Shown: positions 276 to 60,600, counted from the stretch's first letter. The stretch: DNA of 64,000 nt from Candidatus Caccalectryoclostridium excrementigallinarum (GCA_018714485.1 DVNJ01000031.1:61078-125077), one strand, 5' to 3'. The notes: generated by a model not told the origin, from the sequence alone. Translations and numbers: made by a program.

Positions 276-1343
276 TTAGTTCTCCGATTTAAGGCGCTCC
301 GCCATGTCCGCTTCGCGCAACGCCTCTATCATCTCGCCTATATCGCCGTCCAAAAAGGCGTCAAGCGAATAAAGCGTCATTCCTATCCTATGGTCGGTGA
401 CCCTTCCCTGCGGATAATTATATGTCCTGATCCTCTCCGACCTGTCGCCCGTTCCGACCTGCATGCGCCTGTTTTGAGCATATTCGCTCTCCTGCAAGCT
501 GCGGTAATGATCGTAAAGGCGCGCTTTGAGCACCTGCATCGCGCTCTCGCGGTTCTTTATCTGACTGCGTTCGTTCTGGCATTCGACCACGATCCCCGTG
601 GGGATATGCGTGATACGAACGGCGGATTCTGTCTTGTTGACATGCTGTCCGCCCGCGCCGCTCGAACGATAATAATCTATTTTCAGATCCTTTTCGTTGA
701 TCTCCACGTCCACGTCCTTGACCTCGGGCAAGACCGCCACGGTCACGGTCGAGGTATGGATCCTGCCCTGCGACTCCGTCTGCGGCACGCGCTGCACGCG
801 GTGAACTCCGCTTTCGTATTTGAGCAGGGAAAACGCCCCTTTGCCCGAGATCATGAAAACGCTTTCCTTGATCCCGCCGAGGTCCGTTTCGTTTATGCTC
901 AGCTGTTCGCTCTTCCAGCGCATACGCTCGGCAAAACGCATATACATGCGCTGCAACACCGCGCCGAAAAGCCCCGCTTCTTCGCCGCCCGCGCCCGCTC
1001 TGATCTCGATGATGACGTTCTTATTGTCGTCGGGATCGGCGGGGAGCAGCAATTTTTTCATCTCCCCTTCAAGCTGAGTTTGACGCTCTTTGAGCGCGGC
1101 GACGTCGGCTTTTGCCAACTCGACAAGCTCTTCGTCCTCCTCCGCGCTTATTATCTCCTCGCAGCCGTCAATGTCCGCAAGCAGCTTTTTATATTGCCCG
1201 TAAAGCTGCATTATCGGCTCGTATTCCGAATGCTCGACGGCGAGCTTTTGCCATTTTCCTCTGTCCGCAAGGCAGTCGGGGTCGGCGAGCATAGCGGTCA
1301 GCTCGTCAAATCTCTCTTCGATCGCGCGCAGCTTCTCTATCAT
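276..1343 (-). CDS. prfA: Peptide chain release factor 1
   Basis: 355 aa. Contains the GGQ motif (SGAGGQHVNKTESAVRITHIPTG) and the RF1-type P-x-T region (VPQTESQGRIHTS). ATGA overlap with the upstream prmC fusion. Confidence 0.95.
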   Translation of the reverse strand: MIEKLRAIEERFDELTAMLADPDCLADRGKWQKLAVEHSEYEPIMQLYGQYKKLLADIDGCEEIISAEEDEELVELAKADVAALKERQTQLEGEMKKLLLPADPDDNKNVIIEIRAGAGGEEAGLFGAVLQRMYMRFAERMRWKSEQLSINETDLGGIKESVFMISGKGAFSLLKYESGVHRVQRVPQTESQGRIHTSTVTVAVLPEVKDVDVEINEKDLKIDYYRSSGAGGQHVNKTESAVRITHIPTGIVVECQNERSQIKNRESAMQVLKARLYDHYRSLQESEYAQNRRMQVGTGDRSERIRTYNYPQGRVTDHRIGMTLYSLDAFLDGDIGEMIEALREADMAERLKSEN

Positions 1344-3154
1344 TTTTTAACTCCGCAGACTATCCTTTCGATCCCCTGCATATCATTTGTCGTCGTGACC
1401 TTGAAGTCCGTGAGCATGTCAGCGACCGCCTGCGCCTGCCCTATCCCGACTTCGAGGAATATCCTGCCGCCCTCGTTGAGGTGCGACGCCGCCTCTTTGG
1501 CGATCGTGCGACAATAATTCAGTCCGTCATCTCCGCCGTCGAGCGCCGTCCTCGGCTCAAAATCCTTCACTTCTCTTTGCAAGCCGTCGATGTCGGCGGA
1601 AGGGATATAGGGCGGATTGCTTATTATCACGTCGAATTTTCCCTCAATGTCCGCAAACATATCCGACTTGACGAAGACTATCTTGTCTTCGAGCTTATGC
1701 TTTTGCGCGTTGTGCCTTGCCATATCGAGCGCTTTTTCCGAAATGTCGCTCGCCGTGACGCGCGCGCCCGTCTTTCCCGCAACGACGACGGCGATACAGC
1801 CGCTGCCCGTGCAGAGATCGAGCACCGAGCTTTCTTCGTTTATGACTTTGAGCGCCTCGTGGACGAGCTCTTCCGTTTCGGGACGGGGACAGAGGACGTT
1901 GCGGTCGATGTCTATCTCATAGCCGTAAAAATCCGCGTTGCCTATGATCTGCCAAAGCGGTTCTCCCGCCTGTCTGCGGCGAGCCATCTCCTCGAGCAGT
2001 TCGACCTTGGAATGCCTGATATAGGTGAGGCGATCGAGTTCGGAGCGCTTTTTGCCCGTGACGTGACAGATCATCCAATCCACGTCCGCCTTGTCTTCCA
2101 CCATGCTCTCGAGCTTTTTGCGCACGTTCGTATAAAGCTCGTTGGTGTCGAAAGAAAGCTCGGGAAGGTTCGGATCCGCGTCCATCGCCATCACCGTGGT
2201 GAAAGCGGCGATCGCCACTTCGACCATGGAATCGTCCGGTTCGCGCGTGGTCAGCTTTTGCATGAGCTTCCCGGGGAATTTCAGTGCGCGGACGAGGGCG
2301 TTGTCGAATTTCGCCAAAAATTTCAAGACCTCATAGCTTATGCCCATTATCGGCAGCATAAGCAAAAGCCGCCAGCCCAAGTCCGCCAAAAATTTGACCA
2401 CGCGGTTGGGCGCCCAATCGTCCGCCAAGCCGCATATCAGTTCGAGATCGCAAACGGAAAGCACGAGCACTCCTATTATCATGACCAAAACCATGAAGGT
2501 CGTGCCGCACCTGTCGTGATAGGTGCTCATGGTCTGCACGCTCTTCACTTCGAGCGGCAGTTCGTTTTCGTATGCGCTTATCGTCTTATGTTCGGCGCCG
2601 TGATACATATAGGTGCGCCTGATGTCCTTCATCAGCGACGTGAGAAAGATATACAAGATGAAGATGATCAGCCTGATCACGCCTTCGAGGAAGTTCAAGC
2701 CGATATTCACGCCGACCGAGCCTTGACTTTCCTGCGGGATAAGCGCCTCCACGCCGTTGCGGCAAAGCAGCGGCAGAAAGACGAACAGTCCCACCGCGAG
2801 CGCGACGCCGAGCAGGACGGAGATGAACATGACCACGCTGTAAATGTCCACCTTGAAAGTCTTGGCGAGCCATTTTTCGAATTTGGACGGTTCGCCCTCT
2901 TCGTCGCCGAAGACTTCTCCGCTGCGCATGAGCGTCTTTATACCCGTGACCATGGAGCCGAAAAAGTTGAGCACGCCGCGGATGATCGGTATGCGAAAGA
3001 GAACGTTTTTGTCCTTGGCGGGCTTGATGTAACGGCTCTCGACGGCGATCCCGCCCTCTTCGAGGCGCACGGCGGTGGCGATGCTGCGCTCGCCGCGCAT
3101 CATCACTCCCTCGATGACTGCCTGTCCGCCTATCTTACTGCTTCTCTTTCTCAT
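1340..3154 (-). CDS. prmC: Fusion protein: N-terminal DUF1385 (YqhQ-like membrane domain) plus C-terminal release-factor glutamine N5-methyltransferase PrmC/HemK
   Basis: Single 604-aa ORF. The N-terminus has IGGQAVIEGVMMRG and several hydrophobic helices, typical of DUF1385. The C-terminal ~280 aa has PLWQIIG, PRPETE, DLCTGSGCIA and the NPPY catalytic motif (IISNPPYIP). Confidence 0.85.
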   Translation of the reverse strand: MRKRSSKIGGQAVIEGVMMRGERSIATAVRLEEGGIAVESRYIKPAKDKNVLFRIPIIRGVLNFFGSMVTGIKTLMRSGEVFGDEEGEPSKFEKWLAKTFKVDIYSVVMFISVLLGVALAVGLFVFLPLLCRNGVEALIPQESQGSVGVNIGLNFLEGVIRLIIFILYIFLTSLMKDIRRTYMYHGAEHKTISAYENELPLEVKSVQTMSTYHDRCGTTFMVLVMIIGVLVLSVCDLELICGLADDWAPNRVVKFLADLGWRLLLMLPIMGISYEVLKFLAKFDNALVRALKFPGKLMQKLTTREPDDSMVEVAIAAFTTVMAMDADPNLPELSFDTNELYTNVRKKLESMVEDKADVDWMICHVTGKKRSELDRLTYIRHSKVELLEEMARRRQAGEPLWQIIGNADFYGYEIDIDRNVLCPRPETEELVHEALKVINEESSVLDLCTGSGCIAVVVAGKTGARVTASDISEKALDMARHNAQKHKLEDKIVFVKSDMFADIEGKFDVIISNPPYIPSADIDGLQREVKDFEPRTALDGGDDGLNYCRTIAKEAASHLNEGGRIFLEVGIGQAQAVADMLTDFKVTTTNDMQGIERIVCGVKK

Positions 3155-3190
3155 ATCGATTTAATTATTATTCGCGCGCGAATATAAATC

Positions 3191-3247
3191 AAGCAAGCGC
3201 TTGATACGCTTGCTTAAAAATAAAGTGCAAAGAAGGCTCTTTGCACT
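3191..3247 (-). terminator. Tandem hairpins downstream of rpmE (rho-independent terminator)
   Basis: On the minus strand, AGTGCAAAG-agcctt-CTTTGCACT is followed by TTTATTTTT. A second hairpin, AAGCAAGCG-n7-CGCTTGCTT, follows. Confidence 0.65.
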
Positions 3248-4614: not shown

Positions 4615-4640
4615 GGCGCCCGAGATCGGGCGCCTTTTTT
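4615..4640 (+). terminator. Rho-independent terminator
   Basis: GGCGCCCGA-ga-TCGGGCGCC followed by TTTTTT. It abuts the murC stop. Confidence 0.7.
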
Positions 4641-5991
4641 ACATATAGTCCGCGCAATCCCGCACGTTCCCCGCGCCGAGCATGAGGATAATATCTTCTC
4701 TGCCGCTCTTCGACAGCGCGAGCGCTGCCGCTTCTTTGTATCCGGGCGCATATTTCGCACGCACGCTCCCATAGGCATTCAGCCTGCAATACAGATCGTA
4801 ACCGCTCCCCGAGGGCGTATATTCCTCCCGCGCTTTGTAGGTGGGCAGCACGATCGCCTCGTCGGCGAGCGAGAGCGCGTCCACAAAATCCTTCATCAAG
4901 GCGCGGGTGCGTGAGAAAGTATGCGGCTCGAAGATGACGACTATCTTCCCTCGGCAAGTCTGCCGCGCCGTATTCACCGCCGCCTCTATCTCGGTCGGAT
5001 GATGGGCGTAATCATAGACAAGGCGCGCGCCCGACGCCGCCCTTCCCAAATGCTCGTATCTGCCCTTGACGCCCGAAAAACGCGAGAGCGCGGCGGCGCA
5101 GTCCGCGTCCGATATGCCGCATTCACCCGCCGCGGCGCAGGCGGCGAGCGCGTTCAGCACGTTATGTTTCCCCTCGATGTTCATTTCAATGCGCGAGCTT
5201 GCCTTTCCGCACCTGCAAAGATAAAAGGAATATTTCCCGCCGCGAAAATCAAGCTCTTCGGGATAGACGTCGCAGTCGCGGGAATAGCCGAACGTGACCG
5301 CCCTGCGTCCGTTTATCGCCAGCTCCTGCAAGAGCTGCCGATAGCAGACCACGCAACCGCTGACGCAGGTGTTGGCGACAAAGGCGTCGTAGGCTTTCTT
5401 CATGTCTTCCCGATCGCGATAACAGTCGGGATGGTCGAACTGCATGTTTAGAACGACGCTCACGAAGGGGGCGAGAGTGAGAAAGCTGCGGTTATATTCG
5501 CAGGCTTCGGTGATAAACCATTCACTTCCCGCCGTTATCAAGCCCGAACCGCACGCGCAGGTCTCGCCGCCGATATGCCCGGTAAAGGACGCTCCCGCCC
5601 GCTCGAAAATCGCGCAGATCATCGCCGTAACCGTCGTCTTGCCGTGCGTTCCGGCGACGGCGAGCGTCTTTCCGAACATCTTCGAGACAAACCCTAAGAA
5701 TGCTTTTCTCTCCAAGGTCGGGACATGAGCCGCCCGCGCGAAAGAAAGTTGCGGATTTGTCTGCGGCACAGCTGCCGAATAGACCACGACGTCGCATTCG
5801 GGAATAAAAGAGACGTCGTCGCAGGCGGCGATATGCACGCCGCATCGTTTGAGATCCGCGATCGCTTCGGGAGCCGCGAGATCACTCCCCGACACGAGCA
5901 TGCCGAAGGAAAGACAGAGCCTCGCCAAGGCGCGCATGCTCACCCCGCCGACGCCGACAAAATGAATGTTTTTGATTTTATTGAGATCCAT
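4639..5991 (-). CDS. murC: UDP-N-acetylmuramate--L-alanine ligase
   Basis: IHFVGVGGVSM N-terminal Rossmann motif, GTHGKTT P-loop, Mur ligase middle and C domains. Start placed at MDLNKIK (5991). The track start at 6030 would sit on the T-tract of the upstream terminator. Confidence 0.9.
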   Translation of the reverse strand: MDLNKIKNIHFVGVGGVSMRALARLCLSFGMLVSGSDLAAPEAIADLKRCGVHIAACDDVSFIPECDVVVYSAAVPQTNPQLSFARAAHVPTLERKAFLGFVSKMFGKTLAVAGTHGKTTVTAMICAIFERAGASFTGHIGGETCACGSGLITAGSEWFITEACEYNRSFLTLAPFVSVVLNMQFDHPDCYRDREDMKKAYDAFVANTCVSGCVVCYRQLLQELAINGRRAVTFGYSRDCDVYPEELDFRGGKYSFYLCRCGKASSRIEMNIEGKHNVLNALAACAAAGECGISDADCAAALSRFSGVKGRYEHLGRAASGARLVYDYAHHPTEIEAAVNTARQTCRGKIVVIFEPHTFSRTRALMKDFVDALSLADEAIVLPTYKAREEYTPSGSGYDLYCRLNAYGSVRAKYAPGYKEAAALALSKSGREDIILMLGAGNVRDCADYM

Positions 5992-6028
5992 AATCCCATT
6001 ATATGCGCCGAAACAAGCCGTTTTGCGC

Positions 6029-6054
6029 AAAAAAGAAGGGGCTTGCGCCCCTTC
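6029..6054 (-). terminator. Rho-independent terminator after the FGGY kinase gene
   Basis: Minus strand GAAGGGGC-gcaa-GCCCCTTC followed by TTTTTT. Confidence 0.7.
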
Positions 6055-12739: not shown

Positions 12740-13216
12740 TTATTCGTCGAATCTTTGCTTAGGATAATATTCTCTTCCGCTCGCGCCCAAAATGCGGCAG
12801 TTGAGCGCGCTCGAAGGGGCGCTTTTCGGCTTGAAATTTTTCTTTGAACGCATCTTTTGCTTAACAGTCTTTCCCGCCTGCCAAAGCCCGAGCACGATCA
12901 GAAAGCCGCCGAAGCAGCGGGCAAGTATCTCGGAAGGGACTTCGGGCGCGAACCAGGCGCAAAGCGCACTGCCTGCGAGCGCGGGCTGCGCGGTCTTGAA
13001 GAGCGCGGGCATGTCGACGAGTCTGTTTTTGAAATGAATGACGAGCACGGGCGCAGCCATGACGACGAACGCGATCAGATTTATCGCCTGCGCGAGTTTT
13101 TGCTCCACGCCGAGCGCGAGCGTGAGCAGCGGAATGGTGAGCGTCCCGCCGCCCATGCCCATGCCCGCTATCACTCCGCCCGCGGCGCCCGCCAAGACAA
13201 ACCATATCGTCTTCAT
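12740..13216 (-). CDS. TSUP/TauE-SafE family transporter, C-terminal half (4 TM)
   Basis: Start placed at MKTIWFVLAG (13216). The Arg-rich upstream extension in the track is the out-of-frame overlap with the preceding gene. Contains the GMGGGTLTIPLL motif. Confidence 0.75.
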   Translation of the reverse strand: MKTIWFVLAGAAGGVIAGMGMGGGTLTIPLLTLALGVEQKLAQAINLIAFVVMAAPVLVIHFKNRLVDMPALFKTAQPALAGSALCAWFAPEVPSEILARCFGGFLIVLGLWQAGKTVKQKMRSKKNFKPKSAPSSALNCRILGASGREYYPKQRFDE

Positions 13217-13617
13217 CCCGTCACCATTTTGATCCCCGCGCCGATCATGACCGCGTAAAACAGCATGGACAGCCAAAAATTGTCCGCTTTTTTCAAAAGC
13301 AGCGCGCCGAGTATCCCGCCCGCGACGACTCCGCCGCCCACAGAAAGCGCGAGCGAAAGCTCGAAACAACCCTTGACCACATAGATGATCGCCGAGATCA
13401 GGCAGAGAGGCAAAATGACCGCGACGGCGGTCGCATGCGCTTTTTTCGCGTCAAGCCCGTATCCGGACAATATCGGAACGATGAGCATTCCCCCTCCGCC
13501 GCCGAAAAGCCCGTTGACGCAGCCCGCGACGGCGGACACGACGATCGCGCCCTTTTTGAGTATCTTTCCTTTTTTGAGGCTTTTTTGCCGCGCGTTTTTC
13601 TCCTCAATTTTCGCCAT
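13213..13617 (-). CDS. TSUP/TauE-SafE family transporter, N-terminal half (4 TM)
   Basis: 134 aa. Contains the GGGGGMLIVPIL motif after a Lys-rich N-terminus. ATGA overlap (13213..13216) with the C-half gene. Confidence 0.75.
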   Translation of the reverse strand: MAKIEEKNARQKSLKKGKILKKGAIVVSAVAGCVNGLFGGGGGMLIVPILSGYGLDAKKAHATAVAVILPLCLISAIIYVVKGCFELSLALSVGGGVVAGGILGALLLKKADNFWLSMLFYAVMIGAGIKMVTG

Positions 13618-13672
13618 ATTCGGATTATGTGCAATATTTTCATAAAATTTTAACTATTACTTCCTCATTCGT

Positions 13673-18895: not shown

Positions 18896-18945
18896 TTTCG
18901 CCTCCGCTAAATTATATTTTCCCGCCGCAGATAATATCCTATAAT

Positions 18946-20433
18946 ATGAAAAAGATATTCAAGGCGTTTTTCACCGTAACTTCCGTTTCCGTTGTCACGC
19001 GCGGCATTTCCTTTATCTTCAAGATCTTCATCTCGCGCGAACTGGGCGCGGAAGTGATGGGCGTCTATCAGATATGCTTTTCCGTCTTTGCCATGTTCGC
19101 GGCGCTCGCCGCGGGCGGCATACCCGTCACTCTCTCCCGCATCACGGCGGAGACGCAGGCTTTGGGCGATCTCAAAGCCCAACGCTCGGCGGTGACGACA
19201 GCCATGATGATAAGCCTGATGATCTCCATGGCGGTCTGCACGCTTTTTTACAGCTTTCCTTCCATTCTCGACCTACTCTTTTCCGACGCGCGCTGCCGAA
19301 AACTCTTTTTGATAATCCTGCCCACGATGATCGCCACCTCCGTCTATGCCGTTATCCGCAGCTGGTTTTGGGGAAGGCAGAATTATTTTGTCTTTTCGCT
19401 CTCGGAAGCCGCCGACGAGATCATTAAAGTCGCCGTCTGCGCCTTGATGATATTTTTGCTCGCCGACCTTGTCGCGCTCGAATATTCTCTCGCCTATGCC
19501 ATTTTGATCAGCGATTTCATCGCCGCGGGCTTGCTCATTTTTCTCTTTTTCAAAAGCGGCGGCAGAGCGGGCGCGCCCACCATGTGCGCTCCGATCTTGC
19601 GCTCGGCGGCGCCGCTGACCGTGACGCGGCTTTGCGGAAGTCTGATGGCGGTCTTCGTCTCGCTCGCCCTGCCCGCCGTCCTGACGGGCGCCTACGGTCT
19701 GACGAGCGCGGAAGCCACGGCGGAATACGGCAGAGCGTCGGGAATGGTCATGCCGCTTCTGCTCGCCCCCTCTTCGGTAGTCGGTTCGCTTTCCGTGGTC
19801 ATGATCCCCGAGATCGCCTCGCGCAACGCCGGCGGCGACAAGAATCTCTCTTCGGCGATACGCCGTTCGGCAGACTTCACCTGCGCCGTCGCCTGCGCGG
19901 CGTTCATCGTCTTTGCCTCCTGCGGCGATCAGATAGGAAATCTGCTCTATGCTGACGAAAAGGTGGGCAGCCAGCTTTCCTTCGCCGCCTTTATCGTTCT
20001 CCCGCTCTCGCTCAACTCCATGGCGGCGACCTCGCTCAATTCGCTCGGCAGGGAGAGCCGCACCTTTTTCAGCAGCGCGGCGGGCTATCTCTTCCTCGCC
20101 GCGGGAATACTGCTTTTGCCGCGTTTTATGGGCATATACGGCTATTATACCGCCTTTTTTTGCTACCACTGCGCCTCACTATTTTGCAACGTTATGCAGC
20201 TCAAGCGCGTTTTCCCGCAAGGAGTCGGTCACGGCAAATATTCCGCCCTCATCGCTGTCTCCTGCGCAGTTGCGCTCTTTGTCGGCGCGATCTCCTCTTG
20301 GACGCGCGGCTTAGGCGACCTGCTCTCCTGCCTTATCTGCCTCCCCGTCGCGGCGCTGCTTTACTTTGTCGCGCTGCGCCTGACGGGATATATGCCCAAG
20401 CCCTCGCTGCTGATAGGTTATATCAGAAAATAG
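18946..20433 (+). CDS. MOP-superfamily polysaccharide/lipid II flippase, SpoVB/MurJ-like
   Basis: 495 aa, about 14 TM. The N-terminus VVTRGISFIFKIFISRELGAEVMGVYQICFSVF...GIPVTLSRITAE follows the SpoVB pattern (VTRMLGFVNRVVIARFIGEEGVGLYMMA...GLPVAISKLVAE, from memory). Confidence 0.65.
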   Translation: MKKIFKAFFTVTSVSVVTRGISFIFKIFISRELGAEVMGVYQICFSVFAMFAALAAGGIPVTLSRITAETQALGDLKAQRSAVTTAMMISLMISMAVCTLFYSFPSILDLLFSDARCRKLFLIILPTMIATSVYAVIRSWFWGRQNYFVFSLSEAADEIIKVAVCALMIFLLADLVALEYSLAYAILISDFIAAGLLIFLFFKSGGRAGAPTMCAPILRSAAPLTVTRLCGSLMAVFVSLALPAVLTGAYGLTSAEATAEYGRASGMVMPLLLAPSSVVGSLSVVMIPEIASRNAGGDKNLSSAIRRSADFTCAVACAAFIVFASCGDQIGNLLYADEKVGSQLSFAAFIVLPLSLNSMAATSLNSLGRESRTFFSSAAGYLFLAAGILLLPRFMGIYGYYTAFFCYHCASLFCNVMQLKRVFPQGVGHGKYSALIAVSCAVALFVGAISSWTRGLGDLLSCLICLPVAALLYFVALRLTGYMPKPSLLIGYIRK

Positions 20434-20466
20434 CATAAAAGGCGCGCGGGAGCAGATACTAAGCTC

Positions 20467-21171
20467 ATGCTGATCGTATTCGTGCGCGCCATACTCATCT
20501 ATATCTTTCTGCTCGTCGCCATGCGGCTGATGGGCAAAAAGCAGTTGGGCGAACTTCAACCCTTCGAATTCGCCGTCACGCTCATCATGGCGGAGCTTGC
20601 CTGCATTCCCATGTCGGACACGACCGTCCCCGTCATCTACGGACTCGTGCCCATCTTCACCCTCTTCATCGTGCAATTCGCCCTGACCAAGCTCATCAAG
20701 CACTCCTTGAAGGCAAGGCGGCTCATCAACGGCAAGCCCGTGATCGTCATCAATCCCTGCGGCATAGATTACCGCGCGATAAGCATGCTCGACCTCACCG
20801 TGAACGACCTTCTGGAAGCGCTCAGGGAAAAGAACTATCTTTCGCCCGAAGAACTCGAATACGCCATTTTCGAGACCAACGGCGACGTGAGCGTGATACC
20901 CAAAGCCCGCCCGCTGACCACGGAGGATATGCATCTTAACGCGCCGCCCGCACAGCTGCCTTACGCCGTCATTTGCGAAGGCAAGAAGATGTCGGACAAT
21001 ATCCGCAAGGGCAAAATAGATTACGCCTTGGTGGAAAAAGTTCTGAAAGCGCACGACCTCAAACAAAAAAACGTCTTGCTCATGACGGTGACGGGCGGAG
21101 AGAATTTCTATTTGCAGCCCAAATCGGGAAGATATATCACGGGCAGATTGGAGGAAGAGAATGCGGGGTAA
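20467..21171 (+). CDS. DUF421 (YetF/YdfS-like) membrane protein
   Basis: 234 aa. Contains IFLLVAMRLMGKKQLGELQPFEFAVTLIMAELA, typical of the YetF N-terminal region, followed by a DUF421 soluble domain. Confidence 0.75.
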   Translation: MLIVFVRAILIYIFLLVAMRLMGKKQLGELQPFEFAVTLIMAELACIPMSDTTVPVIYGLVPIFTLFIVQFALTKLIKHSLKARRLINGKPVIVINPCGIDYRAISMLDLTVNDLLEALREKNYLSPEELEYAIFETNGDVSVIPKARPLTTEDMHLNAPPAQLPYAVICEGKKMSDNIRKGKIDYALVEKVLKAHDLKQKNVLLMTVTGGENFYLQPKSGRYITGRLEEENAG

Positions 21172-24400: not shown

Positions 24401-26362
24401 TCACTTTTTCCTCTTGCTCTCCGACTTTCTCTTCAAGGCGGCGATCTCCTCGCGGTACTTTATGGCAAGCTCGAAATCGAGACTGCTCGCCGCGAGTTTC
24501 ATCGAGGAAGTGAGCCGTTCTATCTCCGCCCTGATCTGCGCGGGATCTTCGAGCGGCTTTTCCTCCGCCTTCTTGCTTATCTCGATGGTGTTGGTTATCG
24601 GCTTGATTATCGTCTTGGGCGTGATGTGGTGCTCTTCGTTATATTTTTTCTGCACCGTCCTTCTGCGCTCCGTCTCGTCGATCGCGCGGCGCATACTGCC
24701 CGTTATCACGTCCGCATACATTATCACCTTTGCCTCGGCGTTGCGCGCCGCTCTGCCTATCGTCTGCACGAGCGCGGTCTCGCTGCGCAAAAAGCCCTCC
24801 TTGTCCGCGTCGAGGATCGCCACAAGTTTGACTTCGGGCAGATCCAGCCCCTCGCGCAGCAGATTGATGCCCACGAGCACGTCAAAGTCGCCCTTTCGCA
24901 GCGACGTTATGATGTCTATCCTCTCCAAGGTGTCTATGTCCGAATGCATATAGCGCACTTTGATCTGGTTGTCGTTCAAAAACGCGGTGAGATCTTCCGC
25001 CATCTTTTTAGTGAGCGTCGTGACGAGCACTCTGCCGCCGCTGCCCGTGACCTCGTTTATCCTGCCGATGAGGTCGTCTATCTGACCCTTTACGGGCAGG
25101 ACAATAACTTCGGGATCGACAAGTCCCGTGGGACGAATGAGCTGCTCCACGACCTGCCCCGCCTGCTGCATCTCGTAAGGTCCGGGCGTGGCGGAGACGC
25201 AGATCATCTGCCCCACGCGCTCGTCGAACTCGTCGAATTTGAGCGGACGGTTGTCGTAAGCCGCGGGCAGACGGAATCCGTAATCCACCAGATTTTTCTT
25301 GCGCGCCAGATCGCCGTTATACATCGCCCTTATCTGAGGGAGAGTCATATGGCTCTCGTCGATAAAGAGCAGGAAATCTTCGGGGAAAAAGTCGAGAAGC
25401 GTATAAGGCGGCTGCCCTTCGCTCCTGCCGTCGAAATAGCGGGAATAATTTTCTATCCCGCTGCAATAGCCCATCTCCCTGATCATCTCCATATCGTAAC
25501 TCACGCGCTCGCGTATGCGCTGCGCCTCGATGAGTTTTCCCCTTTCCTTGAAATATTTCACTCTCTCGATCATATCCGCGCCTATCTGTCTCAACGCCGC
25601 CTCGCGCTTTTCCTTTTCCACGACATAGTGGCTGGCGGGAAAAATGTTGACGTGTTTGAGGCGCGCGATCGCCTTACCCGTGAGCGGATCTATCTGCGTT
25701 ATGCTCTCGATCTCGTCGCCGAAAAACTCAATCTTCAAGGCTATCTTATCGTTTTCGACGGGGACTATCTCCACGACGTCGCCGCGCACGCGGAAAGAGG
25801 CGCGCTGCAAGTCGAGATCGCTGCGGTCGTATTGGATCTCGATAAGCCTGTCGATCAGCTCGTCCCTGTCCTGAGTCATGCCTTCGCGCAGCGAGATCGC
25901 CATGCTGAAATATTCCATAGGCGCGCCCAAGCCGTAAATGCAGGACACGGAGGCGACGACGATGACGTCCCTGCGCTCGCAGAGCGAACTCGTCGCCGAA
26001 TTGCGCAGGCGGTCGATCTCGTCGTTGACGGACATATCCTTTTCGATATAGGTATCGCTGCGCGGGATATATGCCTCGGGTTGATAATAATCGTAATAGG
26101 AGACAAAATACTCCACTCTGTTTTCGGGGAAAAATTCGCGGAACTCGTTGCAAAGCTGCGCCGCCAAAGTCTTGTTGTGCGCGATGACGAGAGCGGGTCT
26201 GTTCAGCCTCTTGATGACGTTCGCCATGGTGAAGGTCTTGCCGCTGCCCGTGACGCCGAGCAAGACCTGGGTGCGAAGTCCGTCCTTCACGCCCTCGACG
26301 AGTTTTTCTATCGCCTGCGGCTGATCGCCGCGCGGCTCGTAGCTTGATCTCAGTTCAAACAT
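24401..26362 (-). CDS. uvrB: Excinuclease ABC subunit B
   Basis: 653 aa. [37 protein letters not shown], helicase motifs and a C-terminal UVR domain. Confidence 0.97.
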
Positions 26363-26373
26363 ATATCGAAAGA

Positions 26374-26392
26374 ATTATAGCACATATGTTCG
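26374..26392 (-). promoter_or_regulatory. uvrB -10 element with an overlapping LexA (Cheo/SOS) box
   Basis: Minus strand CGAACATATGTGC directly followed by TATAAT. Two mismatches to the Firmicute LexA consensus CGAACnnnnGTTCG. The ATG lies 11 nt after the -10. Confidence 0.6.
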
Positions 26393-26406
26393 CCTAAGGC
26401 AATCGT

Positions 26407-29207: not shown

Positions 29208-29872
29208 CTTCTTTTCCTGCCTTCGCGCCCGTATCCCGCCTTATTGAGCGCCGCCACTATCGGCGGCACGAGGATCGTGAACGCCGCGACCTCTATGCTC
29301 GCATTGACCGCGAGCGTCACCTGAAAGAACTGCGGCAGGATCGCGCTGCTTATCGGCATGTCGCCCACGATATAGCAAAGCCAGATCATCAGGCAGACAA
29401 GCCCCGTGTTCGTCACCGTACCGATAAAAGCGGTAAGGCTCGCAACTCCGTATGCCGCCGCGCTCTTCTTGCGCGCAAGTTTTTTGTATTCCTCTCCGCC
29501 CTTTTCGCATTGCGCCATGGGCGCGTCGAAGCGCTTTTGCACTATCTTCATCAAGCCGTTGAAAGAAAGATAGGACACGACTCCGACCATGAGGCGGGGC
29601 GGGATCGCCACGAGCGGGTTTTGGAACACGGGCGCGGTCAGCGTTCCCGCGCGCACCGTGTAAGCCGCGGTGAACATTCCCAGCGCCATCACTGTCGTGA
29701 GGAACGCCGTAACTCCCCTTTTGCGCATCATCGCCGCCACGAACACGGGCACGAGGCAGAACGCCAAGCTCGCGCCGGCAATGGGCGGTATGGGCGCAAA
29801 GACGAACACGAGTTCGAGCGCCGTAAGCACCGCGGTCAACGCTATCGTCGCCGCCGAAATTTTAATTTTCAT
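29204..29872 (-). CDS. ECF-transporter S-component-like membrane protein (substrate unknown; PanT-like by context only)
   Basis: 222 aa, about 6 TM. General S-component layout. ATGA overlap with coaX. Confidence 0.5.
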   Translation of the reverse strand: MKIKISAATIALTAVLTALELVFVFAPIPPIAGASLAFCLVPVFVAAMMRKRGVTAFLTTVMALGMFTAAYTVRAGTLTAPVFQNPLVAIPPRLMVGVVSYLSFNGLMKIVQKRFDAPMAQCEKGGEEYKKLARKKSAAAYGVASLTAFIGTVTNTGLVCLMIWLCYIVGDMPISSAILPQFFQVTLAVNASIEVAAFTILVPPIVAALNKAGYGREGRKRR

Positions 29873-30101: not shown

Positions 30102-30407
30102 TTAAGCGGAATGCTTTTTCTTTTTGAGTGAAATTTTACGCGGATACCCTTCTTTGAGGCAGCCGTTTTCGTCGAAAGCGCCTATGCGGCGATAGTAGAA
30201 ATAGATAGCGGCGTCCCACGTCAGCCCGACGGCGGCGAAAGGGAGCGCGAAACAGAGAAAATACCACCCGACAAGATCGGTAAAGACGAACTGCGCGCAA
30301 AGCCACATGATGAAAAGGAGCGGAAAGACTGTCATCACCCAAAGGCGATAAGAAAGCGGCTTACCGTCATAGCTTATCATCCAGGTGAAAAAGTTGAATT
30401 TTCTCAT
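30102..30407 (-). CDS. Hypothetical 101-aa two-TM membrane protein, probably leaderless
   Basis: Start moved to MRKFNFF (30407). A perfect TTGACA-17-TATAAT promoter and the terminator of the upstream micro-ORF lie inside the 5' extension given in the track. Confidence 0.6.
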   Translation of the reverse strand: MRKFNFFTWMISYDGKPLSYRLWVMTVFPLLFIMWLCAQFVFTDLVGWYFLCFALPFAAVGLTWDAAIYFYYRRIGAFDENGCLKEGYPRKISLKKKKHSA

Positions 30408-30413
30408 GCTTTG

Positions 30414-30442
30414 ATTATAGCGCGGCAAGAGATTTTTGTCAA
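30414..30442 (-). promoter_or_regulatory. Perfect consensus sigma-A promoter ending 6 nt before ATG 30407
   Basis: Minus strand TTGACA (30442..30437)-17 nt-TATAAT (30419..30414)-caaagc-ATG. Confidence 0.7.
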
Positions 30443-30450
30443 TGAAAGCG

Positions 30451-30481
30451 TAAATAAAAATCAGCCCCGCCGCGGCGGGGC
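30451..30481 (-). terminator. Rho-independent terminator of the Cys-rich micro-ORF
   Basis: Minus strand GCCCCGCC-GC-GGCGGGGC followed by tgaTTTTTATTT. Confidence 0.65.
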
Positions 30482-30540
30482 CGAGTGCGCGCAGATCCCC
30501 CAACGGAGCGCGCCCTATGATGTACTTTCCCGCTCTGAAC

Positions 30541-48285: not shown

Positions 48286-49053
48286 TCACTCCGCCAGCCA
48301 TAATATCAGCGCGCCCGCAACGATGCCGACGATCGCGCAGACGGCGACCCATTTGCACTTCACGCGCGCATACGCCTCCGCAAACATATCGTCGAAAATT
48401 ATATATAACATCGCGCCCGCGGAAAGCGCCAAACATATGCTCAAAAGCACGCCCGAGACCGCGCTGACGAAAAATCCCGCGATCGCGCCTATCACCGTCG
48501 CTATGCCCGTTGAGGCGGCGATGAGCACGGCGGGAACGCGCTTTAAGCCCGCCCTGCAAAACATGGCGGACATGGCAAGCCCCTCGGGGATATTGTGGAG
48601 CGCGATGAGCAGAGCGGCGAGCCACGCCGAACCGCTCGCGGACAAAGACCCGACCAGCATGCCCTCGGGAATGTTATGCAGCACGAGCGCCACCGCGAGC
48701 GAAAGCCCGACATAAAGGTCGCGTTTTCCTTCCGCCTCGTCCGCGATCTCCGCCTCGATATGCGGCGCATGCTTATGCTCGCCCGATTTTTTGTCCAGCA
48801 GCAGTCCCGCGGCAAAGACGATCGCCGCGCCGACGAGCGTGATCAAAAGCGTGAGCCATATCTTCCCGCCCGCTTCGAGCGATTCGGGGAGCACGTCCAA
48901 AAAAACGAGCGCCGCCATAAATCCAGCGGTGAACGCCATGAGCAGGCTGAGAACTTTTTCTCCCTTTCCGTGCACGGAGATCGGGATAAGCGCTCCGATC
49001 AGCGTTCCGCCCACGCCCGCAAGCAAACTCCACAATAAGGCTTCCCACCACAT
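48286..49053 (-). CDS. ZIP-family divalent metal transporter (ZupT-like)
   Basis: 255 aa. Two HNIPEG motifs ([21 protein letters not shown]). Confidence 0.88.
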
Positions 49054-49059
49054 GGCTAT

Positions 49060-49088
49060 ATTTTAGTCCTTTTCGGCGCGATATGCAA
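49060..49088 (-). promoter_or_regulatory. Sigma-A type promoter ending 6 nt before the ZIP start codon
   Basis: Minus strand TTGCAT (49088..49083)-17 nt-TAAAAT (49065..49060)-atagcc-ATG (49053). No Shine-Dalgarno site. Confidence 0.6.
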
Positions 49089-54585: not shown

Positions 54586-56244
54586 TTATTTCACGATCTC
54601 GAACACGACCGCTTCATAGGGGCGCAGCGAGCAAGAAAGCTCACTTCCCGCATAATTTGAAAGCAAAACTCTCCCCTTCGAAAACCCTTCGGGCAGGGCG
54701 AAACTCGCCTCCTTGTTCTTGAAGTTGGCGACGACGAGCAGCGTTTTACCCTCAAAAGTGCGCGTATAGGCGAAGACGTTTTTGTTCTTTTTGTCGAGTT
54801 GCTTAAAGTCGCCGCATTTGACGATCTCGTTGCCGCGACGGAAGGCATGCAGGCGCGCATAGAAGTTATATATCGACCTCTCGCCCGCTTTGAGATCCGC
54901 CTCGACGTTTATCTCCCCGAAAGAGGGATTGAGCATCATCCAGGGCTTTCCCGACGTGAATCCCGCGTTCTTCTCCGCGCTCCACTGCATGGGCGTGCGC
55001 GCATGGTCGCGGGCGCGGCGCGCCAGGCAATAGCGCGCGATCGTCTTCCCCAGCGGGATCTTCGAGGCTATATCAAAGACCTGTCGCGCCATCACGTCGA
55101 GATAATCCTCGTCGCGGAATTTGCAATTTATCATGCCTATCTCCTGCCCCTGATAGACATATGGCGTCCCTTTTTGCATCTGCATCGCCACGGCGAGCAT
55201 TGTCGCCGCCTCAAAGCGCCTCTCGCCGAAGTCGCCCGTGAAGCGTCCCAAAGAGCGCGGCTGATCGTGATTTTCCAAAAACAGCGTGTTCCAGCAGGTA
55301 TCGGGCAGGCTCTGCCACTTTGAAAGCACCTTGGTGAAGCGAGGCAGCTTGAACTTATGCGGCACGACTTCCATATACATATCCGTGCACATATGCTCAA
55401 ATCCGAAAATGGTGTCCAGCTCGCGCCTGTTCTCGTCTATGCATTCGGGCGCCTTTTCGAAAGTTATGCCCGTGGACTCGCCCACGGTATAGGAATCGTA
55501 TTTAGACCACGAGTTTTCGTTCAGCTCGCGTATGAATTCGTGATAGCGCGGTCCGAGCACGAAATGCTCGTCGCCGCACATGATCGGATTGAACTTGCCC
55601 TTGGGCAGTCCGTCCGCCTTGGAGATATAGGTGATGACATCGCAACGGAAGCCGTCCACGCCCTTATCCATCCAAAAATTGCAGATGTCGGCGATCTCGC
55701 GGCGCACGGCGGGATTTTCCCAATTCAGGTCGGGTTGCTTTTTGCTGAACAGGTGCAAATACCATTCCCCCGTCTTTTCGTCGTATGCCCAGGCGCTGCC
55801 GCCGAAGCGCGACGTCCAGTTGTTGGGCGGCTTGCGTCCGTCCTTTCCCCTGCCCTTGCGCCAGATATAATAGTCGCGGTAAGGGTTCTCCTTGGATTCG
55901 CGGCTCTTGACGAACCATTCGTGCTCGTCCGAGGTATGGTTGGCGACAAGGTCCATGATCAGCTTTATGCCGCGCTCATGCATGCCCTCGAGCATCTCGT
56001 CGAAGTCCGCCATCGTTCCGAATTCGTCCATGATGTCGCGGTAATTGCTTATGTCGTAACCGTTGTCGTCGTTGGGCGACTTATAGATAGGCGAAAGCCA
56101 GACTGCGTTCACGCCCAAATTTTTGATATAGTCGAGCTTGGAGATTATCCCGCGCAGATCGCCTATCCCGTCGCCGTTCGAATCGCAGAAACTGCGCGGA
56201 TAGATCTGATAGACCACCGCGTCCTTATACCATCTTGTCTTCAT
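54586..56244 (-). CDS. GH13 alpha-glucosidase / oligo-1,6-glucosidase
   Basis: Start placed at MKTRWYKDAVVYQIYPRSF (GGAGG RBS). Conserved regions are DLVANHTS, GFRCDVI, TVGE and FLENHDQPR. Confidence 0.92.
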   Translation of the reverse strand: MKTRWYKDAVVYQIYPRSFCDSNGDGIGDLRGIISKLDYIKNLGVNAVWLSPIYKSPNDDNGYDISNYRDIMDEFGTMADFDEMLEGMHERGIKLIMDLVANHTSDEHEWFVKSRESKENPYRDYYIWRKGRGKDGRKPPNNWTSRFGGSAWAYDEKTGEWYLHLFSKKQPDLNWENPAVRREIADICNFWMDKGVDGFRCDVITYISKADGLPKGKFNPIMCGDEHFVLGPRYHEFIRELNENSWSKYDSYTVGESTGITFEKAPECIDENRRELDTIFGFEHMCTDMYMEVVPHKFKLPRFTKVLSKWQSLPDTCWNTLFLENHDQPRSLGRFTGDFGERRFEAATMLAVAMQMQKGTPYVYQGQEIGMINCKFRDEDYLDVMARQVFDIASKIPLGKTIARYCLARRARDHARTPMQWSAEKNAGFTSGKPWMMLNPSFGEINVEADLKAGERSIYNFYARLHAFRRGNEIVKCGDFKQLDKKNKNVFAYTRTFEGKTLLVVANFKNKEASFALPEGFSKGRVLLSNYAGSELSCSLRPYEAVVFEIVK

Positions 56245-57040
56245 AAAAACCTCCGTATAAAGTATTCGCCGTCTGCCTTGTCGAAGCATAAGTGAGGACC
56301 TTGACGAACGCGGCGCCGCACTTATACGCCATGCGCGCAAGTTCGCTCGCCGTTGCGCCCGTGGTGAGAACGTCGTCGACGATGAGCACTCCCGCGCCTT
56401 TCAGTCGCGCCGCGCCCGCGCCCTTGGCATAGGCGCCTTTGACGTTTTCTTCCCTCTCCTTTCCGCTCAAACCCGCCTGGGCGGCGATATTCTTTTCCTT
56501 TATTATCGCGTCTTTCAAAAGGGGCAGGGAGAGCATCTCCGAAAGATATTCGCATATCAATTCGATATGGTCGAATCCCCGCTCGAGCACGCGCTCTTTC
56601 GCCGTCGGCGAAGGCACGATCACGCTGCAACCCATCTGCGCCGCCTCGTAAAGCTCCGCCATGTCGCGCGCCATATAACGCGCCGCGTAAAGCTGCGCGC
56701 CGTATTTATAACCCGTCACGACGCGGCGTATGCCGCCCTCATAGACATAGCACGAACGGGCGCAGTCGAACTCGCGCTCGCGCTCGCGGCATATTTCGCA
56801 AAACCGCTCCTCGGCGATCAGGGCGCGTCCGCATTTTTGACATACCCTGCCCGTATTTTCCCTTATCTCGCGGCGGCAGTTTTCGCAAAAACCGCCGTGA
56901 GAGCATTCGCCCTGTTCGTCGCCGCACAAAAGACAGCTCACGTCGAAGGGATAGAGAAATTCCGTCGCCGCCGACGTTTTGACGTATCTAAGGGAACTTA
57001 TCGCCTTTTTCCTTCTCACGTCTTTATTATAGCACAGCAA
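56225..57040 (-). CDS. comFC: ComF-family protein (ComFC; Zn-finger plus phosphoribosyltransferase fold); start uncertain
   Basis: Cys clusters CLLCG...CENC...CQKCG...CEIC and the PRTase motif VLIVDDVLTTGAT. The track start at 57040 is a TTG inside a consensus promoter. An in-frame GTG at 57019 is the more likely start. Confidence 0.8.
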   Translation of the reverse strand: MLCYNKDVRRKKAISSLRYVKTSAATEFLYPFDVSCLLCGDEQGECSHGGFCENCRREIRENTGRVCQKCGRALIAEERFCEICREREREFDCARSCYVYEGGIRRVVTGYKYGAQLYAARYMARDMAELYEAAQMGCSVIVPSPTAKERVLERGFDHIELICEYLSEMLSLPLLKDAIIKEKNIAAQAGLSGKEREENVKGAYAKGAGAARLKGAGVLIVDDVLTTGATASELARMAYKCGAAFVKVLTYASTRQTANTLYGGFYEDKMV

Positions 57041-57054
57041 AAGGAGCGTGTAAA
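57026..57054 (-). promoter_or_regulatory. Sigma-A type promoter ending 6 nt before an in-frame GTG of comFC
   Basis: Minus strand TTTACA (57054..57049)-17 nt-TATAAT (57031..57026)-aaagac-GTG (57019). Confidence 0.55.
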
Positions 57055-57146
57055 TACCGCATTTTTCCGTTTAAGGCAAATCGCGCTCAAAATGAACAGA
57101 GCGCATCGAATCTCGACGCGCTCCGTATTGGGGGAAGAAGACGGAA

Positions 57147-57680
57147 TCATTCCGTCAAGAGTTTGTATTCCGTTTTGACCACGATGATAAAGTCGTTCGC
57201 TTCGCCTTCGAACGTGTAAGTCACGTCGACTGCGGTCGCCCTCATCGCCTCGGTGTCGATCGTCGCCACGATGCTCGCGTCGGCATAATCGCCGTCCCTG
57301 CCGAGGAAGCTCTCCATGTCGGAGATCTGCGCCGTGTAAGTCGCAACGTTGCCGTTAACGACAAGCGCGGCGTCGCTGAAATAACCCGAATCATAGCTGA
57401 ACGTGGACGCGCCGTTGAGGTCGGGCACCAACGAGGTGACGATACCTGCGATCTCGTCGGGAACGTTCGCCGCGGGTTCGGGATAAGAATAGATCACCTG
57501 ACTTGTTGAGGCTTCGGTGACGGTCACGGTCACGGACGGGATCGCCACGCTCGACGACGTGTCCGCAAGACAGGCGAGCGCGTCATTGAGCGTCATGGGT
57601 TCCACGCATGCCGCCGCAAAGACGGCGACAAGCCCGATCACGAGTACAGTTAAGATGATAACCGCTTTTTTCTTAGTCAT
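57147..57680 (-). CDS. Hypothetical 177-aa lipoprotein, translationally coupled to the giant surface protein gene
   Basis: Signal peptide with lipobox VFAAAC. GGAGGAAG RBS inside the last codons of the upstream gene (8-nt overlap). Confidence 0.65.
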   Translation of the reverse strand: MTKKKAVIILTVLVIGLVAVFAAACVEPMTLNDALACLADTSSSVAIPSVTVTVTEASTSQVIYSYPEPAANVPDEIAGIVTSLVPDLNGASTFSYDSGYFSDAALVVNGNVATYTAQISDMESFLGRDGDYADASIVATIDTEAMRATAVDVTYTFEGEANDFIIVVKTEYKLLTE

Positions 57681-60600
57681 TGAGGTCTTCCTCCTTGCTC
57701 TTCCTTTTACGCGCCGCGGCGAAGATAAATCCTATTCCCAGCGCTGCGGGCATTGCCGCGCCGCCGACGACAGCCGCCGTTCCGACCGCGGAAACGCCGA
57801 TGCCCTTACCGGTCGCCTTTTCCGCCGTGTCGACAGCCGAGTCGATCGCCGCTTGCAGATCCGCCATATATTCGCTGCGCGCCTCTTCGATCGCCGCGAG
57901 CGCTTCTTCTATCTCTTCCGCTCTCGCCTCACGGTCGGCTACGCTGACGGAGTTGAGATCGTCCATCAGCTCCACATACCTTCCAAAGCCGGTACTGCTG
58001 AAGCTGTCCGCCAGCTCTTGAGCTTGCGCCAAGATGTCGTCCACGTTCGTCGTGGTGTCGACGGAGAGTTGGACGTCCAGCTTAACTTCGGTCTCGCCAT
58101 CCGAGCCGACATAGTTGGAGTCGTTCATTCTGAAGATGATCGTATAGTGTTCCGAAGGAGTGAGACCGGTGACGGTGTTCTCGCCCTTGTATGCCTTGAC
58201 CCAGGTCGTGCCGTCAATCGAATACTCATAGCCGTTCGCCTTGCCGTCGATGACAAAGGTCGCGTTGTTGCTGTTGACTTCGGTCAGGACGGCGTTCACA
58301 CTATCGGCGACCGCCGCCGCGCTTGCGGGCTGAACGGTCACTTCGCAGACATCTCTGCCGCTCACGTCGGTGTTGATCTCGCCGCCGGACGTGATGTCTT
58401 CATATTCGCAGCTGAACGACAGGTCGAGATAATAAGTGCCCGCGTTGACTGCGCCCACGCCGCCGAAGACCACGATGAAGGTTCCGCCCTCCGTGCTCTG
58501 ACTTTCGAACCTGAGCTGCGAGACCGTTCTATTGCCTTCATCGACGAGCCTGATCGCGGCGGCGTCGAAGGCGAGATGGATATCATTGATGATGTCCGCG
58601 GAGCCGGGCGCCAGGGAGTTGACCGCGAGCTTGACGGTGATCTTGTTGTCCGCGCCGTAAGTGAGCGCCGCGGGGGCTTCGGTGGGACCGACGGAAGCGC
58701 CGATATAGTAAGTTCCCTCGATCGTGCCCTCGAAGTTGCCCTTGCCCGTGACCTTGAAGTGGTATTCGCCGGTATATTTACCACCCTCTTCGGTATAATT
58801 ACCCGCTTCGTCGACAAATGCCAGCTCGTAATCCGTGCCGACCTCGAGCAACGTGTCGCGGTTATAGTAAGCGATGAAGTTGATGCCTTCCTTGGTCACG
58901 GCAACGGCTTCGCCGTTCGCGCTCTTAAAGTCGAAGGAGTCGCGATAAGACCAGCGGATCGAGCTGTCCGAGATATCGCGGGCTACGATCGTTATCTTGA
59001 CGTCCTCGGAATAGAAAGTCGCGCCGTCTTCGAGGTTAGGCATAGTCGCGCTGTCGACGATAAGCTTGAAGGTGTATACGCCCGCGTTCGCCAGCATCGC
59101 CCTCTGCTCATCCGTCATGTTCACGACGCCGCCTTCGACCGCGTATGTGAAGAGTTCCTCGCCGTCCTTAATCACTCTGACGCTGTAAGAGTTCACCTTC
59201 TGCGTATGCGTGACGCCCGAAAGCTTTTCCTCGACCGTGATCTTGAAATCGAAGGAAGGAACGATGGACGAGCCGTTGTAGGTCATGCTGCTCTTGGACC
59301 TGTTGCTTATTTCCGCATCGACACTCTCCGCCTGAGCGGGAGTGATTTTCAGCTTCGCCACTTCGGTCCTCTCCGCCATGTTATCCATGTTTACATTGAC
59401 GATCAAGGTGTAATCGCCGGCATATATGATCGAGCCGCCGACCGCTTTGTCGCCCGCGAGCGTCACCTTGACGCCCTTTGCGAACACGCCGTCCGTCGCG
59501 TCGCCGAGAGTGGTCCTCTTGAGCTGTACTTCTCCCGTGAGGGCGTTCGCGCCCTGAGGTATCTCATAGCGATAGACCTCGAGATAGTTGCCCATGATCG
59601 TCCTTGCTTTGATGGTCATGCCGTCGAACTCTCTCTCCCAGACCCCGTCGTTGTTTTTAGTGAACAAGTCCGCGTCCGCACCTTCGGGATCGAGATTGAG
59701 ATTGACCTCGAGCGCCTCGGAAGGCGAGATGGTGATATTGACGTCGATGGCGGAAGAGCGCGACTTGTCTGCCCTCTCGAACTCATAGTTGGTGCTCGAA
59801 ATGGCGAGATGGAAGCTGTATTCGCCCGCCGCGGCAAGCATGCCGCTCTCGCCGTCCGTAACGACGATACCCAGCTCGGTAGCATTGATGATGTCGCCGA
59901 GCTTTACCTGCTGATCGTAAACGCCGTAAGGCACCCATTCGCTGCCGTTATAATAACCGCTTTGAATGAGCAGGCGCTCGTTCCTTCTGAAGTTACGGCC
60001 CGTATACATCGTGGCATATTCCCACCAGCCTTGATGCTCGCCGCTGCCCGCGTTCACGTCCTCGCGGTAGGTCTCGCTGAGCCACTTGTAGGTAAGCACG
60101 TCGAAGTCCACTCTAAGCACGGCTTTCGCCACATCGAGCGAGACGGGGACGGAATAAGGCGTACCGTCGATCGAGCCGAGCGTCGTCAGCTTGCTCGCGC
60201 CGTCATAGAGGTCGATGGTATAGTTGGCGTTGTTGAGCGCGAAGTCGACGCTGCTCGAATAGCTGCCCGCGATCATCGCGCCGCCCTCGGCGAGCGTGCC
60301 CGACATCGTGACGGTCAAAACGCCGTATTTGCCGCTGCCCGCCTCGACCACGGTATCGTCATAGCCCTCGCCCTTGATGCCGAAGACAAAGTCGTCGCCG
60401 ACAACGAGCTCGAGCGTACCGAAGGACGAACCGTTGTAAACGCCGTTAAACTTCACTCCGCCCGCGACAAGCGCCTTCTGGCCACTCTTTCCGAGCTCCA
60501 CCGCAACGTCGCCGATTTTGACGTCGACGGACTTCTTTGCGACGGTCAGGTCGAGGAAGTCGGGCGTGTAGATAAGCTCGAAGTTGTTATATTCGCCCTC

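Follow-up and report, generated by a model that had tools for sequence, protein, structure and literature searches.

Start-adjacent sigma-A promoters suggest leaderless mRNAs in a Christensenellaceae-like member of Clostridia

TA-led genes were reported in 2011 by Zheng et al. for 56 of 209 Firmicutes, where they represented 2.4-16.6% of genes (PMC3160421), and in 2018 the GeneMarkS-2 study of Lomsadze et al. assigned 36 of 1064 Firmicutes (3.4%) to its leaderless group C (PMC6028130), a group that also takes in 717 of 4930 human-microbiome species bins (PMC8153819). The published signature of leaderless genes in bacteria is a -10 box lying 6-8 nt from the start codon (PMC3160421; PMC6028130; PMC12340547; 10.1101/2022.07.25.500264), with a mean spacer of 6 nt (10.1101/2022.07.25.500264). 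In Deinococcus, -10 motifs adjacent to ORFs go back to de Groot et al. (2014), as cited in PMC12340547.

In the window analysed here, meaning the whole 64-kb stretch of DNA (GC 55%), 54 genes with a strong GC3 bias (about 0.72) were called and 53 start codons were curated. Close genome relatives were found in three MAGs only, named "uncultured Christensenellaceae bacterium" (L002, L003 and L004, with MurC identities of 70%, 49% and 44%, respectively), and gene order is kept between them and the window. The MurC identities and the kept gene order indicate that the host is a Christensenellaceae-like member of Clostridia, which agrees with the Clostridia-like genome supposed in an earlier note on the same DNA. 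An ORF of more than 2100 aa (57673-63999, minus strand) runs past the window end and overlaps by 8 nt the start of a downstream 177-aa gene.

The earlier note had singled out five genes in which a -10 hexamer ends exactly 6 nt before the start codon, and all five motifs were recovered (30442-30405, 49088-49051, 57054-57017, 6003-5989 and 13629-13615; all on the minus strand). The same holds for its two near variants, located ahead of uvrB (TATAAT-11-ATG) and of a DUF1385-prmC fusion gene (TTGATT-17-AATAAT-9-ATG). One additional case at 6 nt (DUF421/YetF, 20467, plus strand) and one additional near case (Polysacc_synt, 18946, plus strand) had escaped it. The sites, with the terminator-like hairpins that precede some of them, are the following:

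30405-30442, minus strand: promoter and start of the membrane protein gene (101 aa; gene 30102-30407), TTGACA-17-TATAAT-caaagc-ATG; consensus 12/12 in an independent promoter scan (30442-30414).
30461-30484, minus strand: terminator-like hairpin of the gene upstream of the membrane protein gene, 10 pairs with a T-run, ending about 18 nt before the -35 hexamer.
49051-49088, minus strand: promoter and start of the ZIP metal transporter gene (48286-49053; Pfam ZIP), TTGCAT-17-TAAAAT-atagcc-ATG.
57017-57054, minus strand: promoter and GTG start of the comFC-like gene (56225-57019), TTTACA-17-(TGc)TATAAT-aaagac-GTG; 11/12 plus a TG extended -10 in the scan (57054-57026).
57096-57126, minus strand: terminator-like hairpin upstream of the comFC promoter, 14 pairs, with equivalents visible in the orthologous loci L086-L088.
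5989-6003, minus strand: -10 hexamer and start of murC (4639-5991), TATAAT-gggatt-ATG, with no recognisable -35.
6035-6054, minus strand: terminator-like hairpin before murC, 8 pairs with TTTTTT, ending about 38 nt before the ATG.
13615-13653, minus strand: promoter and start of the first TauE/TSUP half-gene (13213-13617), TTAAAA-18-CATAAT-ccgaat-ATG; 9/12 in the scan (13653-13624).
20455-20469, plus strand: candidate at DUF421/YetF (20467-21171), GATACT-aagctc-ATG, with a weak -10, no -35 and no SD.
26360-26402, minus strand: near-leaderless candidate uvrB (24401-26362), TTGCCT-17-(TGc)TATAAT-11 nt-ATG without SD; 10/12 plus TG in the scan (26402-26374).
3152-3192, minus strand: near-leaderless candidate DUF1385-prmC fusion gene (1340-3154), TTGATT-17-AATAAT-9 nt-ATG without SD; 9/12 in the scan (3192-3164).
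18930-18948, plus strand: ambiguous SD-less head of the Polysacc_synt gene (18946-20433), GATAAT 10 nt before the ATG and a TATAAT abutting it (0 nt).

Pfam confirmed the identities of the ZIP, ComF-like, MurC, TauE (both halves), UvrB and DUF1385-PrmC products; the ComF-like protein joins a double zinc ribbon to a PRTase, and the ZIP gene heads a ZIP-tsaC(Sua5)-LMWPc cluster. The TauE/TSUP transporter (12740-13617, minus strand) is encoded by two half-size ORFs overlapping by 4 nt (ATGA), a split shared by L002. The first ORF, labelled "TSUP N-half" in the earlier note, actually aligns with positions 119-237 of Pfam TauE, in its C-terminal half, and the second with positions 2-114, in its N-terminal half, an order permuted with respect to the model. 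DUF1385-PrmC is a single 604-aa ORF (1340-3154, minus strand), fused likewise in L002, while in L004 (12880-15050) the gene is SD-led and the matches to DUF1385 and PrmC form two segments with about 200 nt between them.

The exact pattern TATAAT-N6-RTG occurs three times on both strands of the window (128 kb) against 0.34 occurrences expected, and all three lie at predicted gene starts. When a -10-like hexamer was defined as a match of at least 5/6, with A2 and T6 required, and d as the number of nucleotides from the end of the hexamer to the start codon, five such hexamers were found at d=6 before the 53 curated starts, and no more than two at any other d from 0 to 60. For the window, the binomial P of this peak is 5e-4 if the distance is set a priori and a modest 0.03 if any distance is allowed. 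The value of 6 is not arbitrary, since with it the start codon opens at the 7th position after the -10 hexamer; it is also the published leaderless spacer. The arrangement is unlikely to be due to chance. The opposite reading, in which A/T-rich hexamers fell near starts by accident or the examples were picked by the reader, can draw on that window-only family-wise P of 0.03 and on how common the relaxed motif is: start-agnostic histograms of the relaxed -10 (5/6) before any ATG or GTG with a long ORF were noisy, being dominated by intragenic matches and a 3-nt periodicity, and became informative only with exact TATAAT. The three exact matches, all at gene starts where 0.34 were expected anywhere, tell against it, as do the orthologous loci described below, and it is regarded as scarcely credible.

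A second line of evidence comes from the way in which the hexamers and SD sequences are distributed among genes. An SD core, taken as any substring of at least 4 nt of AAGGAGGTGA located 3-13 nt upstream of the start, is present in 40 of the 53 window genes and absent from the five sites of the earlier note, as it had stated, and from DUF421; the sole exception is an AAGGA 13 nt before the ZIP start, which lies upstream of the -10 box. If genes with a divergent neighbour, or with 30 nt or more to the gene upstream, are taken as transcription-unit heads, the window has about 25 heads, 16 with an SD core and nine without. A -10-like hexamer stands 0-12 nt before every one of the nine, in six of them at exactly d=6 (membrane protein, ZIP, comFC, murC, TauE and DUF421) and in the others at 11 nt (uvrB), 9 nt (DUF1385-prmC) and 10 or 0 nt (Polysacc_synt), whereas at d=5-8 a hexamer of at least 5/6 is missing from all 16 SD-led heads. 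The two sets of heads separate cleanly, which agrees with the proposal that two initiation modes coexist in this DNA. Carriers of the signature, from the six strict cases to nine if d=9-11 is included, amount to 11-17% of the genes and 24-36% of the roughly 25 heads of this one 64-kb window.

The strong promoters of the window form two classes, one lying 6 nt and the other 22-42 nt from the start codon. The SD-led genes that have strong promoters show uniformly short leaders, with 5' UTRs of about 15-35 nt, alongside which a separate class with a predicted zero-length leader exists. No Rfam family or tRNA was found in the 64-kb window, so that no riboswitch or leader RNA accounts for the SD-less heads. 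The RNA structure and GC of the first 40 nt did not differ significantly between candidates and other genes (P=0.17 and 0.25). This counts against the leaderless reading to the extent that no lower degree of structure was detected at the candidate 5' ends than at other genes.

Terminator-like hairpins stand directly before the murC, membrane protein and comFC promoters, with a hairpin-to-start gap of only about 20-40 nt, and the ZIP and TauE genes are preceded by divergent intergenic regions. Hairpins and divergent neighbours mean that each gene needs a promoter of its own in the short space (about 40 nt) before its start, and in those gaps the start-adjacent hexamer is the only promoter candidate. 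The murC, membrane protein, comFC, ZIP and TauE genes are accordingly placed as first genes, DUF421 less clearly so. A -35 and a -10 hexamer 16-18 bp apart, the spacing of sigma-A/sigma-70 promoters, are found at 30442, 57054, 26402 (uvrB), 13653 and 3192.

It could be argued, nevertheless, that these genes are translated by an SD-independent route from leadered or read-through transcripts, the A/T-rich hexamer serving as an unstructured, S1-type enhancer and not as a promoter. Non-SD initiation with A-rich upstream regions is indeed known in other phyla (GeneMarkS-2 group B, PMC6028130). In the window, murC, TauE and DUF421 lack a convincing -35 (2-4/6 matches), and DUF421 has a -10 matching at only 4/6 and follows a co-oriented gene after a gap of just 33 nt. 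An enhancer of this kind, however, would need neither an exact TATAAT or TAAAAT at a fixed 6 nt nor a conserved -35 at exactly 17 nt from it. Terminator-like hairpins ahead of three of the sites also speak against this explanation, and SD-less genes inside operons (43407, 45903, 46246 and 53662) have no hexamer of at least 5/6 within 12 nt. It is considered distinctly improbable.

Whether the codons next to the -10 boxes are the ones used was assessed gene by gene. MurC enters its Mur_ligase domain at residue 8, so that a protein initiated at the following in-frame ATG would lack the GxGG nucleotide-binding motif, and the sole upstream start falls within the terminator hairpin. The ZIP N-terminus MWWEALLWS is conserved among orthologues of 61-76% identity, one of which (L090) has no other in-frame start. 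In comFC, the residues ahead of the next GTG are part of the zinc-ribbon domain, and in the orthologues P0122 and P0123 an ATG is the start, or falls exactly in the alignment, where the window has its GTG. In the L002 TauE gene the ATG adjacent to the -10 is the only usable start, and orthologues of the membrane protein retain the N-terminus MRKFNFFTW, even the one in L100, for which a downstream ATG had been called as the start. Taken together, Pfam boundaries, N-terminal alignments and absent alternatives point to the codons beside the -10 boxes as the true translation starts. The GTG of comFC is a point against the leaderless reading, since in E. coli GTG is a poor leaderless start, although the comFC orthologues have ATG.

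These observations bear on another alternative, according to which the promoters are real but the ATG or GTG at +1 goes unused, translation beginning at an internal start served by an SD-like sequence within the first codons, such as the TTG at 49035 in ZIP or the ATG at codon 10 of the membrane protein. The ZIP TTG is in frame and does have a GGTGG 9 nt upstream, and gene callers did take downstream starts in several orthologues (P0004, P0006 and P0007 for ZIP, P0244 for the membrane protein). Yet the residues from the +1 codon to these alternative starts are conserved as protein (MWWEAL, MRKFNFFTW), and the lack of any other in-frame start in L090 removes the rival ZIP start. The next in-frame starts of murC and TauE would cost conserved domain or transmembrane segments, and the comFC orthologues begin precisely at the aligned position. 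Initiation at internal codons is thus distinctly improbable, and initiation at the promoter-proximal codons is the reading retained here.

The strongest evidence for a functional arrangement came from orthologous loci in related Christensenellaceae MAGs and metagenome contigs, with 44-86% protein identity, in which the following was seen:

murC: TATAAT-6-ATG in L002; TATAAT-5-ATG in L003 and L004.
TauE: CATAAT-tttcat-ATG (d=6) in L002.
comFC: TTTACA-17-TGnTATAAT-6-ATG in L086, L087 and L088.
ZIP: TTGCA(T/A)-17-TAAAAT-6-ATG in L089, L092-L099 and L090.
Membrane protein: TTGACT-17-TATAAT-6-ATG in L100; TTGACC-18-TATAAT-6-ATG in L102.
DUF421: GATACT-aagcat-ATG (d=6) in L100.
dinB, just outside the window: TTTACA-17-TATAAT-6-ATG in L001 and L002.

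Even the ZIP -35, TTGCAT, with only 3/6 consensus matches, is conserved. Across 11 orthologue pairs, identity to the reference reached 66/66 (100%) for the -10 and 64/66 (97%) for the -35, as opposed to 56% for the 17-nt spacer and 52% for the 6-nt spacer, both of invariant length. Hexamers and distances that stay fixed while the spacers drift are what one expects when selection maintains the hexamers and how far they lie from the start codon, and the hexamers and both spacings are, judging from these alignments, under purifying selection across the related species. Neither chance nor a generic A/T-rich enhancer easily accounts for such a pattern. In an outgroup control, a metagenome scan with a MurC alignment whose patterns were so generic that they brought up distant murC genes only (32-38% identity), a relaxed -10 hexamer at d=5-7 was seen in 4 of 77 distant murC loci, and an exact one in none. 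Since all the close orthologues examined share the geometry although their spacers have diverged, and since it is absent from 73 of the 77 distant murC loci, the chance explanation can be regarded as effectively refuted by the orthologue comparison.

The near-leaderless candidates are less rigid. The uvrB orthologues have d=9 (L100) and d=10 (L102), both without SD, and DUF1385 is preceded by TTGATT-17-AATATT-5-ATG in L002 and by a GGAGG SD instead in the more distant L004. In L103 and L104, more distant contigs of 41-45% GC, comFC and ZIP are operon-internal or SD-led, which implies that the arrangement is not ancient for these two genes; each contig offers one new candidate and no more. The arrangement thus fades in remoter relatives, as DUF1385 in L004 and comFC and ZIP in L103 and L104 show. 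The dinB gene (DNA polymerase IV, IMS) lies in L001 at 19628-20878 (minus strand), about 4.9 kb beyond window position 1, and in L002 at 20880 (minus strand), and its product has the canonical MKTILHCDANNFYASV N-terminus. Its divergent neighbour, an M60-like gene, has a TGtTATAAT 8 nt before an ATG.

Transcription usually begins 7 nt after the -10 box, from which a start at the start codon itself is predicted for the d=6 genes. Where transcription starts in these genes, and how ribosomes are recruited, is inferred. In the proposed model, the position of a sigma-A/sigma-70 type promoter would make the opening A or G of the start codon, which is the 7th base after the -10 hexamer, the initial nucleotide transcribed by RNA polymerase. 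The resulting transcripts would have no 5' UTR and no SD sequence, and their 5'-terminal AUG or GUG would be bound directly by the ribosome with initiator tRNA, that is, through the SD-independent leaderless route. This mode would operate beside ordinary SD-led initiation, at about 6 of the 25 heads in the window, and three further heads (uvrB, DUF1385-prmC and Polysacc_synt) would have a 5' UTR of only about 2-5 nt. It is considered quite probable that the six d=6 genes are made in this way, as leaderless mRNAs from housekeeping sigma-A promoters that start on the start codon. The leaderless reading put forward in the earlier note is therefore favoured by the start codons, the orthologue geometry, the hairpins and divergent regions and the split between SD and -10, all of which agree at the sequence level with what it predicts.

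The uvrB promoter has an additional feature, a conserved CGAACATATGTGC (26380-26392, minus strand) lying between the -35 and -10, with the same element found before uvrB in L100 and L102. CGAACATATGTGC resembles the Gram-positive LexA/Cheo box (CGAAC-N4-GTTCG), which suggests possible SOS repression of the near-leaderless uvrB. Matches to the LexA-box pattern number three in the window where 1.8 would be expected, an excess without significance. Within the coding sequence of an ECF-transporter gene (29803-29816), the perfect 14-nt palindrome CGAACACGAGTTCG fits the pattern too, and is probably fortuitous as a LexA box.

Existing annotations of the orthologues contain errors of both signs. In homologues of comFC and of the membrane protein (P0121, P0123, P0125, P0241, P0243 and P0245), ORFs were called upstream through their own promoters (corresponding to 57019-57040 and 30407-30503 in the window), giving artefactual N-termini: the residues ahead of the true Met, "CYN" or "RYN" and two more, are a translation of the TATAAT and 6-nt spacer. 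In P0004, P0006, P0007 and P0244, on the contrary, gene callers cut the orthologues back to downstream starts. Such extensions and truncations point to start sites in Christensenellaceae MAG catalogues being biased by Prodigal-type callers.

In summary, the window provides a new example, at the level of lineage, of a known mechanism and not a new mechanism. Wide use of leaderless mRNAs would thereby extend to a gut-associated lineage of Clostridia for which it has apparently not been described; in the literature searched, no paper was found that ties leaderless expression to Christensenellaceae. On a wider reading, to which about even chances are given, a genus- to family-level Christensenellaceae clade of about 55% GC would have gene starts of the Actinobacteria/Deinococcus-like group C type. 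One quarter to one third of its transcription units would be truly leaderless, with full-consensus sigma-A promoters and a rigid 6-nt spacing, including murC, uvrB, dinB and at least one GTG message. If this clade-wide reading is true, the ribosome or the initiation factors would have been tuned specifically in this lineage, and start codons would be misannotated systematically across catalogues of gut MAGs. The sites could also represent compact, ready-made promoter/start cassettes for work on Christensenella-like bacteria, which attract interest as health-associated gut taxa.

Among described systems, the window comes closest to the TA-led genes and group C genomes (PMC3160421; PMC6028130). 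In both, a TANNNT or TATAAT ends about 6-8 nt before operon-first starts without SD, SD-led genes coexist, and the full TAtaaT form is found in mid-GC genomes. For group C, 25-50% of operons have been reported; the 24-36% of heads counted here come from one 64-kb window, not from a genome, and the corresponding 11-17% of genes stands at the top of the 2011 Firmicutes range (2.4-16.6%). Group C differs in being dominated by Actinobacteria and Deinococcus-Thermus, with only 3.4% of Firmicutes belonging to it. The earlier note's remark that such a density is unusual for Clostridia is thus fair, but the case is not unprecedented, considering the 36 of 1064 Firmicutes in group C (PMC6028130) and the 56 of 209 with TA-led genes (PMC3160421).

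The Deinococcus-Thermus "-10 motif adjacent to ORFs" (Zhong et al. 2025, PMC12340547) is similar in lying 6-7 bp upstream, in being conserved among orthologues and in that annotated ORFs are often wrongly extended across it. That motif is TANNNT, most commonly TACACT, and usually occurs without a -35, whereas several window sites have the full TTGACA-17-TATAAT; the Deinococcus case also has RNA-seq and reporter support (PMC12340547), while the window case is a prediction from sequence. Transcripts that begin at the A or G of AUG or GUG, GUG messages included, also make up a large share in Mycobacterium tuberculosis (Cortes et al. 2013, PMC3898074). In this high-GC actinobacterium they were established by transcription start site mapping, whereas here they are predicted from sequence for Clostridia DNA of 55% GC. 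Clostridium phytofermentans (PMC5171806) and Clostridioides difficile (PMC7438776) share with the host the class Clostridia, promoters of the sigma-A type and short 5' UTRs. In the former, about 4% of intergenic start sites are potentially leaderless, mostly keeping an RBS and another start site (PMC5171806), and in the latter 15 potentially leaderless genes were counted (PMC7438776). Leaderless transcripts are therefore rare in the mapped model Clostridia, whereas about one quarter of the heads in the window carry the signature without an SD.
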